This document shows positions 35,501 to 38,500 of a stretch of DNA of 64,000 nucleotides, piece after piece (the stretch's first letter is position 1; each line of letters begins with the position of its first letter). Made by a program: the position numbers. The stretch is from Klebsiella pneumoniae (GTDB taxonomy: Bacteria; Pseudomonadota; Gammaproteobacteria; Ga0077536). The stretch is from assembly GCA_945861225.1 (NCBI GenBank), contig CAMATU010000001.1, positions 10,418 to 74,417 of the forward strand, read 5' to 3'.

Positions 35501-38500
35501 CTCGATCCCTACTTACTGACGCTAATTGACGACGCAGAACGTGCGCGCCGCCTCGCCGCCAGCGGGGTCTCTGCTGAATTGGCGTTTCGACCGGCCAGCG
35601 CAACCGATATCGTGCTGAGAATGCTCAACAATCTGCGCGGCCTCGCCATCGCCCAAAATAATCACACGCTGGCTCTCGAGTACACCGACCACCAACTGCT
35701 ACTGACCACCGACACTTTTGCGCTGCGCCTGATCCGCGCTGAGTTGTGGTACGGCTTAGGTGCGCCGCGCATGGCGGGTGTTGAGCTGAACCATGCGCTG
35801 GCAGTGGCGCCTGATAGCGCGACCAAGCAGCAAATTGAGGCGCGCTTGCGGCAGTTGGCGGGGGAGCGGCAGACGCTGCACTAGCGGCGTATCCGTAAAC
35901 ACAGCGCGTGATGTGCTCTAAGCTTGGAGTGCGGTAGAGGGATATATGCGTTTAGCAATTGCAGAACAGTCAGCTATCAGCGACACCATTCGCCAAGCAG
36001 ATGCCGACGCAACTATTTACCTTTTTGGGTCACGCACGGACGATGCCGCCAAGGGCGGCGACATTGATCTGTTGGTGCTTTCCACAAAAATCACGCTCAT
36101 GACAAAGCTGGACATCCTTGCGGAACTGCACCAAAAGCTAGGTGAACGTAGGATCGACATCGCCATCTATCCCGATGCTACCCGCCCTTTCCCCAGAATC
36201 ATCATGCAAGAGGGGGTGCGCTTATGACGCGGGAAAAAATTGAACTGCTGCAGGAAGAGCTGCTTGGCCTACAACTGGCCGCCGGTCATCTTGGGTATTC
36301 AATAGAACGATGCCGCCAGAGCAACTGGAACGCCGTGAATCACTCACAAAAATAGCCCGCACTGCTATGGGATCAAAACGGAACACAAGGCGGAAATTTT
36401 GATGGTCGTCATCCCGGGCGAAGCGGCGACAGCCGCGCAGACCCGGGATCCATGGGCGCGTGAAGAGCAAGATGGATCCCGGATAAGTGCTGCGCACTTT
36501 CCGGGATGACGGGGTTAGGAGTGTATCGAAACCATGAACTGCTCAGGATCTCCTGTGTCGTCATGAAGATTTCTCTCTCCACACACCGGGTGTACTATCC
36601 GAGCCATGCAACTTGCTATTGGTAAAGTGATTGGGGGGAAAGTCGTCGTTGAGGGAGAACCTCTTCCTGAGGGCACAGTCGTGACTATCCTCGCACGTGA
36701 AGCAGATGAAACCTTCGAAGTACCGCCAGAGTTAGAAGCCGATCTCCTGGCATCGATTGCCGAGGCAGATCGCGGCGAAACCATTGCCGCTGAGCAAGTA
36801 CTTCAACGCTTGCGCCAGCTAGCCTGAGAAAGGGAGGCTGGCCAGCAATTTGTCTTCATTCCTAAGGGCAAGGGCGTCCTCGTGATACCAGTCCCCGAGT
36901 TAGCGCAGCTCGCCGGCATTGCGAAGGATGCCAATAAGAGCAACTGCCGTGATCGCAAGGATCGCTACTGATGAGGGTCGTCGATACGTCGGCCTGGATT
37001 GAGTGGATGGTCAGGAGTCTTTTTAAGCTAGATAGCGCGCACTGTAGGTGAGACAAACGCATGATTCGACGCGGCATTGGGGATGCCGAAAGCTTCTATC
37101 CCCGTCATCCCGGAAAGTGCGGAGCACTAATAGACGTCATCCCGGAATTTGCAACGCAAATATCCGGGGCGGGATCCATCTTGTCCTTCTGGCGCCCTTG
37201 GATCCCGGGTCTGCGCGGCTAACGCCGCTTCGCCCGGGATGACGAACTTAAAAGTTTTCGTCACATCTCGCGTCTTGTTTCCATTGCAGTGCGGGCTATT
37301 TAGCTATCGTCTACGCCACCGCGTGTGAGCACGGGGCAGATTTACTCACTTGCGATGGCCAATTCGAAAGTCTGCCCAGCGTGATTTACTTCAAGAAAAG
37401 TGCGTGAACGTTACGCTGTGGTTGCCATCTCCAGCTTAAGAGGTTTTTGTCGCGAACCCGCCATGCAAAAAGACCAGGGTTGCCCGCGTAAGTTCTTAAT
37501 TTTCGAATACAAATGCTCGCCGGTAATCGAGGCGCCCAAAGAATCGGCGAGTTATTGTGCCCGACATCAAATAGACAAAGTTCCAGCACCTATCCCGGAG
37601 GTCGCTCGACAGTCCTTCGTTCGGCGAATCATGCGTGGTGCGAGCACGCCGAAACCCGACGCCAATAGCAACAGGCTCATGGGTAACGGGACAGCAACCG
37701 GACTGAAGTTCACCGTGATTTGGAAATTGTCGTAGCCAGCGTCAATCGTAAAGCCCAGTACGCTAGTACTCACCGAATTGAAAAATCCGAAGGTAATCTG
37801 CTCGCCATTTACCCAATTCACCTGTGGGAACAGCGATACCAGATCGGTGACGGACGCAAGGTCCCAGGTTGGTGGACTTGCCGTCGAAATGCCAAGAAAA
37901 CCTGTGCTGAGGATCCCGTCTTGTAGGACCGCAATCCCTTTGGCAACTTGAGTTGCCCCAGGGTCGCTACTAAAAACTCGGCTTATGTCATACGACATTG
38001 AAACCGACGTTACCATTCCTTGGGATTTCGGGGTGAATTGAGTAACGTTCCATAGCTGCGCATCGAATGCGGACTGGAAGGGCGCCACGCTTAAGCTCAC
38101 TCGCCGAAACGCACCCGGGTTTCCGCCGATCGCCTGAGTAGACGAAGAGCTCGTGCCCGCAAGGCCAGGAAATGTTTCGGAGAACCATTCGTTCGCCAAG
38201 AACTCCCCGGTTGAGAAGGTCACGCTGTCCGCGAGGGCCAGTTCACTCACACCCGCGAACAAAAATAACCCGCCTGAAATTCGTGCGGCTTTGGAGATCC
38301 ATTTCTTGTTCATCAGCGCTCCCTGCGTTTGTAAAGAGGGGGTCATCGCTTGACGCCCCTTGTTCGTTTACGGATGTCCAGCTGGACACCTCGTAAGCTG
38401 GTCCGCACCTCGGGCGTATAGCGACCATCTTCCGCGTCCAGATGCTCCGGAAGCGTAGCGCAGGAAGCCCGGTCTGTCGTGGTTCATGTCGATTCAGCTT

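Follow-up and report, generated by a model that had tools for sequence, protein, structure and literature searches.

The small antitoxin genes, gene fragments and repeats lying between positions 35,946 and 37,407 of a 64,000-nucleotide (nt) stretch of Klebsiella pneumoniae DNA raise the question of which toxin-antitoxin systems they derive from and how these systems were lost. The stretch (hereafter the window; assembly GCA_945861225.1, contig CAMATU010000001.1, positions 10,418 to 74,417 of the forward strand) had been inspected before on its own, and this sequence-only reading described a decaying toxin-antitoxin islet with an intact mntA antitoxin gene, a truncated partner, and a vapC toxin gene split by a miniature inverted-repeat transposable element (MITE). 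The synteny of relatives and the breakpoints of homology bear out the decay, and the region is very probably a chromosomal islet that originally consisted of three tandem toxin-antitoxin operons and in which all three toxin genes are now dead. Toxin inactivation had been recognized correctly, but it concerns three modules instead of two, one toxin gene having been deleted whole. Judged by the gene order and domain content of the relatives, the ancestral modules are mntA-hepT (type VII-like), a 73-amino-acid (aa) antitoxin with a ParE-family toxin, and vapB-vapC (MazE/AbrB-type antitoxin with PIN-domain toxin).

Relatives were collected among metagenome contigs through exact identity of the 73-aa protein, which is found on at least 24 contigs. 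Nine of these loci (L017 to L025) are syntenic with the window. One of them, L020, is 99.945% identical to the window over 3630 nt and represents the same haplotype in another sample, while the other syntenic relatives are 80-95% identical at the nucleotide level. Listings of open reading frames (ORFs) and domain scans gave the gene order in the relatives: a transglutaminase-like gene, mntA, hepT, the 73-aa gene, a parE-like ORF, vapB, vapC and an HTH_24 regulator gene. The breakpoints were observed directly, by BLAST against the syntenic relatives, in the junction sequences and by tblastn of six reference proteins. In the window, tblastn recovered MntA residues 1-93, HepT residues 1-30 and 39-51, the 73-aa protein in full (residues 1-73, 100% identical), VapB residues 26-70 and VapC residues 1-16 and 92-125; ParE gave no tblastn match in the window. 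The lesions are mostly microhomology-type deletions, to which two insertions of IS630-type MITEs are added.

The first module retains its antitoxin. As had been claimed, mntA (35946-36227, plus strand) is intact. It encodes a minimal nucleotidyltransferase of 93 aa that matches the Pfam families Polbeta (PF18765, E 1.3e-9) and NTP_transf_2 (PF01909, E 6.6e-7), both above the cut-offs, and that is 87% identical to MntA of the relatives over all 93 residues, with equal length. Its ratio of non-synonymous to synonymous substitution rates (dN/dS) relative to these is about 0.22-0.38. The motif GSRTDDAAKGGDID, GS-X9-DID at residue 28, fits GS-X9-DXD, with a spacing one residue shorter than the GSX10DXD published for MntA (PMC7641770), and the protein scores 34.4 bits with the NCBIfam MntA equivalog model, under its 60-bit cut-off. 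Look-ups of the exact MntA protein returned only the source contig and one further contig (L002), which breaks inside the repeat that follows hepT (repeat D, see below).

The fate of the partner gene is more involved than its length suggests. The sequence-only reading had it stop after 43 codons, right before a MITE copy. An ORF of 43 codons does overlap mntA by ATGA (36224-36355), and it does end in the repeat, whose TAG (36353-36355) serves as the stop; however, the frame had already been shifted upstream by a deletion of 28 nt (junction 36311-36314), and homology continues in the true frame up to 36349. The hepT remnant (36224-36349, plus strand) accordingly comprises residues 1-30, which keep the original frame, and residues 39-51, which are read in the +1 frame. 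When homologues of the 43-aa ORF were sought, only short or truncated relatives came up; they revealed the frameshift, while the full-length protein was obtained from the syntenic contigs. There, HepT is 151 aa long, carries RNLIAHEY (RX4HXY) at residue 105 and matches the HepT-like family PF01934 with E 0.0019 and 18.4 bits, under the 23.5-bit cut-off. Because only residues 1-30 and 39-51 are kept in the window, the region of the RX4HXY motif is missing there.

Truncated forms of hepT occur elsewhere too. Proteins P0002-P0016, from many metagenome contigs, share the conserved first 25-30 HepT residues and then differ in their continuations. Several of them (P0011-P0016) lack an internal part in frame, so that the N-terminus continues directly into roughly the last 35 residues and the RX4HXY region is lost. 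In L019 (2178-3000) the whole mntA-hepT module is gone, and about 175 nt separate the 73-aa gene from a transglutaminase-like gene cut to 215 aa.

The small antitoxin-like gene of the sequence-only reading (36606-36827, plus strand) proved to be real and intact. Its 73-aa product has 2173 homologues, typically of 73-86 aa, and 1131 representative clusters match it at E <= 0.001; members about 75-80% identical were found in Betaproteobacteria and in metagenome-assembled genomes (MAGs) of Thermoanaerobaculia. The family had no match in Pfam, NCBIfam or PHROG and no significant sequence match in the PDB. A profile search of PDB sequences gave insignificant matches only, among them the C-termini of YefM antitoxins (E about 0.7-1). 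With a deeper alignment, the AlphaFold model of the protein shows a β-hairpin followed by two helices (predicted local distance difference test, pLDDT, 80.9; predicted template modelling score, pTM, 0.33); the model from a shallow alignment was unusable (pLDDT 59.8). A Foldseek search of the PDB with the 73-aa model found nothing with an E value below 1.9. The 73-nt leader of the gene (36533-36605, plus strand) lies outside repeat D and is conserved, at about 92% identity to the relatives (6 differences in 73 nt), and the 299-nt segment from 36533 to 36831 as a whole is 95% identical to them.

The partner of this antitoxin was found in the relatives. There, a GTG-initiated ORF of 98 aa begins 5 nt past the stop codon of the 73-aa gene and matches ParE_toxin (PF05016) with E 3.8e-8 and 34.3 bits, against a cut-off of 23. 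Such an ORF stands behind the 73-aa gene in L017-L025 (for example 1761-2057 in L017 and 1833-2129 in L022) and also in L011-L015 (2737-3030), which are unrelated toxin-antitoxin arrays whose ParE is 53-55% identical. Existing gene calls omit it in every islet relative and in L011, L012, L013 and L015; in L014 a shorter version of 87 aa is called (2770-3033), with a weak ParE_toxin match. It is because the GTG-start ORF is not called that the antitoxins of these loci look like orphans in annotations.

In the window the antitoxin is an orphan indeed. A clean deletion of 541 nt, with its junction between 36831 and 36832 (36828-36835), was located by BLAST, junction sequences and tblastn. Beginning one base ahead of the parE start codon, it took out this gene, the spacer and codons 1-25 of vapB; the stretch absent from the window corresponds to L022 1832-2372. 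The sequence-only reading had remarked that the antitoxin ORF reads through its TGA in frame for 47 codons. These codons exist, but they are the C-terminal two-thirds of vapB and not a feature of the antitoxin: the 541-nt deletion joined the vapB remnant there, residues 26-70 being by chance in frame with the TGA. In other loci parE was damaged differently, by a frameshift in L019 and by an internal deletion in L010. An orphan 73-aa gene has arisen at least three times (window, L019 and L010).

We considered whether the orphan MntA and 73-aa antitoxins may have been kept by selection, as anti-addiction, cross-neutralising or regulatory proteins, with the toxin losses being adaptive. Several observations are in line with this possibility. 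The 73-aa gene differs from that of the relatives by 7 synonymous and no non-synonymous changes, although this count is biased and overstates constraint, because the relatives were retrieved by exact identity of the protein. The low dN/dS of mntA and the repeated origin of orphan 73-aa copies point in the same direction, and orphan antitoxins are common in other genomes, where they have been proposed to be anti-addiction modules (PMC7192599). However, dN/dS integrates over the time when the toxins were still present, and a promoter scan of 35850-37500 detected no sigma-70-like promoter. On balance we regard selective retention as possible and rather unlikely.

In the third module, the vapB remnant (36832-36971, plus strand) consists of residues 26-70 and the stop codon of a MazE/AbrB-type antitoxin. 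It is 87% identical to the corresponding residues of the relatives' VapB, and it also matches the VapB of an unrelated locus (L008) from GQQFVFIPKGKG onward. VapB of the relatives is 70 aa long and scores 26.1 bits with MazE_antitoxin (PF04014), above the cut-off, and 29.8 bits with AbrB; the match covers residues 5-46, a region lost in the window. The sequence-only reading stated that the antitoxins were retained. This is true of MntA and of the 73-aa protein, whereas VapB no longer has its DNA-binding N-terminus. Two antitoxins are kept and the third is truncated, so that the rule by which toxins die first and antitoxins linger is true for two of the three modules.

vapB and vapC overlap by 1 nt (TGATG). 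The 5' remnant of vapC (36971-37028, plus strand) comprises residues 1-16, joined to F-K-L codons of about residues 85-87, and lies in an ORF of 26 codons that starts with MRVVDTSAWIEW at 36971. An internal deletion of about 200 nt (about residues 17-84) separates the two parts. The 3' remnant (37303-37407, plus strand), comprising residues 92-125 and the stop codon, is 85% identical to the VapC reference and aligns with positions 94-117 of the PIN profile (PF01850). The T-A-D-A codons in between (residues 88-91), which include a conserved aspartate of the PIN domain, are missing. The sequence-only reading was right, according to tblastn and PF01850, in assigning the PIN N-terminus from 36971 and the PIN C-terminus ending at 37407 to a single vapC.

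The simplest account of these two fragments would be that a MITE split an otherwise intact vapC, that the 73-aa gene is the antitoxin of this toxin and was retained, and that excision would restore a PIN toxin. The common origin of the fragments and the bona fide MITE with target-site duplication between them favour such a split. Reconstruction of vapC refuted it. After deletion of 37103-37244, which the sequence-only reading had taken for the inserted element, no ORF crossed the junction. When the true element (E, see below) and one TA were removed in silico, an in-frame ORF of 54 codons, MRVVDTSAWIEWMVRSLFKLAIVYATACEHGADLLTCDGQFESLPSVIYFKKSA, was obtained. Its product scored 23.1 bits with the PIN profile (cut-off 23.6), at profile positions 94-117 only, and the fragments of the window together cover PIN positions of about 1-16 and 94-117. 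PIN similarity is therefore present, but the precise excision leaves a stub without a contiguous PIN domain, the outcome that the sequence-only reading had itself named as contradicting it. The repaired VapC of the relatives (125 aa, with one frameshift corrected and a second MITE removed), on the other hand, matched PIN with E 7.5e-20 over profile positions 2-117. The assignment of the 73-aa gene to VapC fails as well, since the C-terminal 45 residues of the cognate MazE-type VapB lie between them, at 36832-36971, and the 73-aa gene is paired with ParE in the relatives and in unrelated loci. A simple split is thus very improbable.

Each of the relatives has its own damage in vapC. A frameshift near codon 24-26 is found in L021, L022, L023 and L025, and a deletion fusing vapB (residues 1-31) to vapC (from residue 50) in L017, L018, L019 and L024. 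In addition, every relative that reaches the site, L020 excepted, carries a different MITE of about 310 nt in the same GCTAGC hexamer of vapC; this element is absent from the window. It has the ends GTCGTCCCTGAAAAAGTC and the core GTAGGTTGGGGTGAGCGAAGCGAACCCCAAC (for example L021 1810-2128), with an extra GCTA in its left flank. The sequence of the window before insertion of E, AAGCTAGCTATCG, equals the allele of the relatives minus their MITE and 18 nt to the right of it; it could equally represent an uninterrupted allele that lost 12 nt and acquired one substitution. The shared GCTAGCTA suggests that the MITE of the relatives had been lost before E arrived, as opposed to an independent arrival. 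We had also considered an alignment of the left flank of E to vapC codons 19-23 (GGCAAGAAGCT). It was rejected, since recognition of the TA duplication gave the pre-insertion sequence TTTAAGCTAGC, which matches codons of about 85-88 in the relatives over 11 nt.

Internally deleted vapC genes were seen in unrelated loci too. In L003 (2086-2534) and L008 (3789-4129) intact MazE-type VapBs of 69-70 aa are followed by in-frame, internally deleted VapCs of 79 and 42 aa; mini-VapCs of these lengths beside intact VapB are represented by the proteins P0017 and P0018. In L003-L006 the vapB/mini-vapC pair lies directly downstream of ruvA, with ruvB one gene further in L003.

We then turn to the elements responsible for two of the lesions. 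A repeat search returned one long inverted pair, with arms of 132 nt (36350-36481 and 37170-37301) that are 83% complementary. These arms belong to the two inverted MITE copies, D and E, of the sequence-only reading. The copies themselves are real, but the limits given to them, about 36407-36511 and 37103-37244, enclose only an inner palindromic module. Element E is 270 nt long (37031-37300, minus strand) and lies between TA duplications (37029-30 and 37301-02) within GCTAGC, so that the whole occupies 37029-37302. Its limits were fixed by comparison with a full-length copy of 270 nt, 94% identical, which was found at an unrelated locus (L026) of a Pseudomonadota MAG by scanning species-representative genomes with a composite pattern. 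The terminal inverted repeats of E are GATAGCGCGCACTG and AATAGCCCGCACTG (the ends of the MITE can be written AATAGCCCGCACTG...CAGTGCGGGCTATT); over their 14 nt, the two repeats of E agree at 12 positions and those of L026 at all. The flanks read AAGC-TA[E]TA-GCTA in the window and CGGC-TA[...]TA-GCAA in L026. E is non-coding, contains the inner module (37103-37244), is inverted in orientation relative to D and folds end to end into one hairpin (-73 kcal/mol, z score -8).

A 2-bp duplication at CTAG has been described for IS630 (PMC2577343, Table 1, citing Tenzen and Ohtsubo 1991). By its terminal inverted repeats and its TA duplication within CTAG, E is classified as an IS630-type MITE; full copies with TA-in-CTAG flanks are two only (E and L026), among three copies known in all. 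The transposase that moved it would then have belonged to the same family; no transposase was found in the window. The composite pattern occurred twice, against zero expected, which speaks against chance. Its scan of genome contigs returned one true copy (L026) and one chance match. A scan of JGI metagenome contigs with a 15-mer of the inverted repeat gave 120 loci, all chance matches, and no real copy.

Repeat D (36350-36532, plus strand) is a truncated and inverted copy of the same MITE, in which the left inverted-repeat end is intact and about 75 nt on the right are gone. It extends from 36350 to about 36521 or 36532. The homology of the relatives ends at 36347 and restarts at 36533, and the intervening 185 nt replace 628 nt, that is, the rest of hepT and intergenic DNA. 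D is best read as an insertion into a CTAG at about hepT codon 51, after which the junction was slightly altered and the right end was deleted, because the left junction coincides with a site that is a CTAG in haplotype L024 (CACTAGTCG); the other relatives have CACGAGTCG. An inversion between D and E was rejected, as gene order and orientation are the same as in the relatives.

The window contains 13 occurrences of the motif CGTCATCCCGG where 1.8 would be expected, more than chance would give, and the inner palindromic module is bounded by CGTCATCCCGG...CCGGGATGACG. Exact matches to the outer sequence ATAGCCCGCACTG were found only at D and E, with a one-mismatch version forming the other end of E at 37032. 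The inner module is an inverted pair of hairpins (GTCATCCCGG-loop-CCGGGATCCA), similar to repetitive extragenic palindromes and bacterial interspersed mosaic elements (REP/BIME), that is nested in the 270-nt MITE. It also stands alone at 30923-31027, and stand-alone variants lie in intergenic DNA at 22042-22084 and 34931-34973. Rfam gave no match anywhere in the window.

Since repeats of this kind do break assemblies, as short-read contig L002 does inside D, the truncations might be unreal and the joins at D and E chimeric products of metagenome assembly. Against this, the arrangement of D, the 541-nt junction and E was assembled independently in the second sample (L020), which is why we consider the window haplotype real. 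Furthermore, the 28-nt and 541-nt deletions lie away from the repeats, and E has clean TA duplications within sequence that otherwise matches vapC of the relatives, making an artefact highly improbable. Equally improbable is that integron attC sites or REP/BIME elements separate mobile toxin-antitoxin cassettes here and that the fragments mark cassette boundaries: even though the 73-aa family occurs in arrays of small toxin-antitoxin genes elsewhere (L011-L015) and the inner module is a REP/BIME-like double hairpin that also stands alone, we rejected this reading because the relatives lack D and E here yet have the same genes in the same order, the breakpoints lie inside coding sequences, E has terminal inverted repeats and a TA duplication and is mobile as one piece of 270 nt, and no integrase was seen adjoining the islet.

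Some observations fit the decay of three operons less well. Both HepT and MntA stay under the curated cut-offs of their specific models. No relative contains an intact vapC, so that the "ancestral" vapC is a repaired reconstruction. The left junction of D reads CAC-AAA-AATAGCCC instead of the expected CAC-TA-AATAGCCC, and since it lacks this TA, the reading of D as a CTAG insertion needs a small later change. Lastly, the absence of non-synonymous changes in the 73-aa gene reflects in part how the relatives were retrieved.

For the three-operon islet, the best account of the decay is as follows. hepT underwent the 28-nt frameshifting deletion and, at a CTAG in about codon 51, the insertion of MITE copy D; a later deletion began within D and reached the point 73 nt ahead of the 73-aa gene. 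The 541-nt deletion took the whole of parE together with the N-terminal, DNA-binding part of vapB. In vapC, about 75 internal codons were lost and E was inserted, with TA duplication, in the GCTAGC palindrome. The order of these events may be suggested in one respect: since vapC is damaged in all relatives as well, it was probably the first to die. Its death would have made vapB dispensable. The surviving antitoxins may persist either since their loss is harmless only once the toxin is gone, or through some remaining use. The same bias of lesions towards toxins is seen in damage that arose independently, both in sister haplotypes and at loci unrelated to the islet: the internal deletions of hepT (P0011-P0016), the parE frameshift of L019 and the internal parE deletion of L010.

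MITEs have hit toxins of the islet three times: D in hepT, E in vapC, and the different MITE in the vapC GCTAGC of the relatives. A broader interpretation, which we put forward tentatively and hold to be somewhat less probable still than selective retention of both orphans, is that the 73-aa protein belongs to a large un-annotated family of ParE-partnered antitoxins, that purifying selection maintains it as an orphan which still has a function, such as anti-addiction when ParE modules enter the cell, and that CTAG-targeting IS630-type MITEs are a recurrent route of toxin knock-out.

A few features of the window outside the islet genes were recorded. Downstream of vapC, a 1.2-kb segment (37446-38664) is absent from all relatives, which have only 66 nt between the corresponding flanks. 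It contains an ORF of 259 aa on the minus strand (37567-38346), whose C-terminus resembles a PEP-CTERM sorting signal, and ends on the right with a CGTCATCCCGA repeat variant (38648-38658). Another intergenic repeat family (AATTGATAGGGCGGATAAGCCCGCAGGGCGTCATCCGCC...), unrelated to the first, has three copies of 88-96% identity (20049-20107, 29387-29440 and 33238-33301). Three diverged direct repeats of 71 nt (65-75% identity) at 23315-24243 lie inside a minus-strand ORF of 1307 aa (22213-26136) and probably correspond to repeats within the protein.

Biologically the case is ordinary: toxin-antitoxin loci on chromosomes are known to decay, the toxin going before the antitoxin, and antitoxins without partners are common. 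As a worked example of this course the locus is clean, since sister haplotypes allow at least eight independent lesions, in three modules lying side by side, to be read at base level. Two points concern annotation: a widespread ParE-associated antitoxin family, with a GTG-start toxin partner, is overlooked by current domain libraries, and a MITE with an IS630-type insertion signature was undescribed. The case also calls for caution, as inner palindromic modules may pass for the whole mobile element.

Comparison with known systems places each module. The mntA-hepT pair resembles the type VII HepT/MntA (HEPN/MNT) system of Shewanella SO_3166/SO_3165 (PMC7641770) in that a small MNT-domain gene lies upstream of a HEPN gene with an ATGA overlap, in the RX4HXY (RNLIAHEY) of the relatives' toxin and in the GS...DXD nucleotidyltransferase motif of the antitoxin. 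It differs in the spacing of this motif (X9 versus X10), in its scores (34 bits versus 60 for MntA, 18.4 versus 23.5 for HepT-like), and in the toxin of the window, which is reduced to 43 frameshifted codons. The third module is like VapBC in gene order, in its 1-nt TGATG overlap, in the PIN match of the repaired relative and in the MazE_antitoxin/AbrB match of VapB, but neither the window nor any relative has an intact copy, and the window keeps only VapB 26-70 and VapC 1-16 and 92-125. As in ParDE-type systems (ParE/RelE superfamily), the 73-aa antitoxin comes first and is followed, 5 nt after its stop codon, by a ParE-family toxin of about 98 aa, and this pairing is conserved in unrelated contexts; unlike in those systems, no ParD, Phd/YefM or Unstab_antitox model recognizes the antitoxin, and the window has lost the toxin gene. 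The MITE has the short length (270 nt), inverted repeats, long hairpin and TA in CTAG (both full copies) of non-coding elements derived from IS630/Tc1-mariner transposons, but contains a nested REP/BIME-like double-hairpin module that also exists on its own elsewhere in the window.

Orphan antitoxins and degraded toxin-antitoxin pairs are well documented in population surveys, for instance in Klebsiella (PMC7192599), so that the finding adds a well-resolved case to a process already known and is not a new system. Like the orphan antitoxins of that survey, those of the islet are antitoxin genes left without a functional toxin in their original context through degradation of the pair. Unlike them, they stand among lesions that comparison with sister haplotypes resolves to the single base, in three adjacent modules that decay together.

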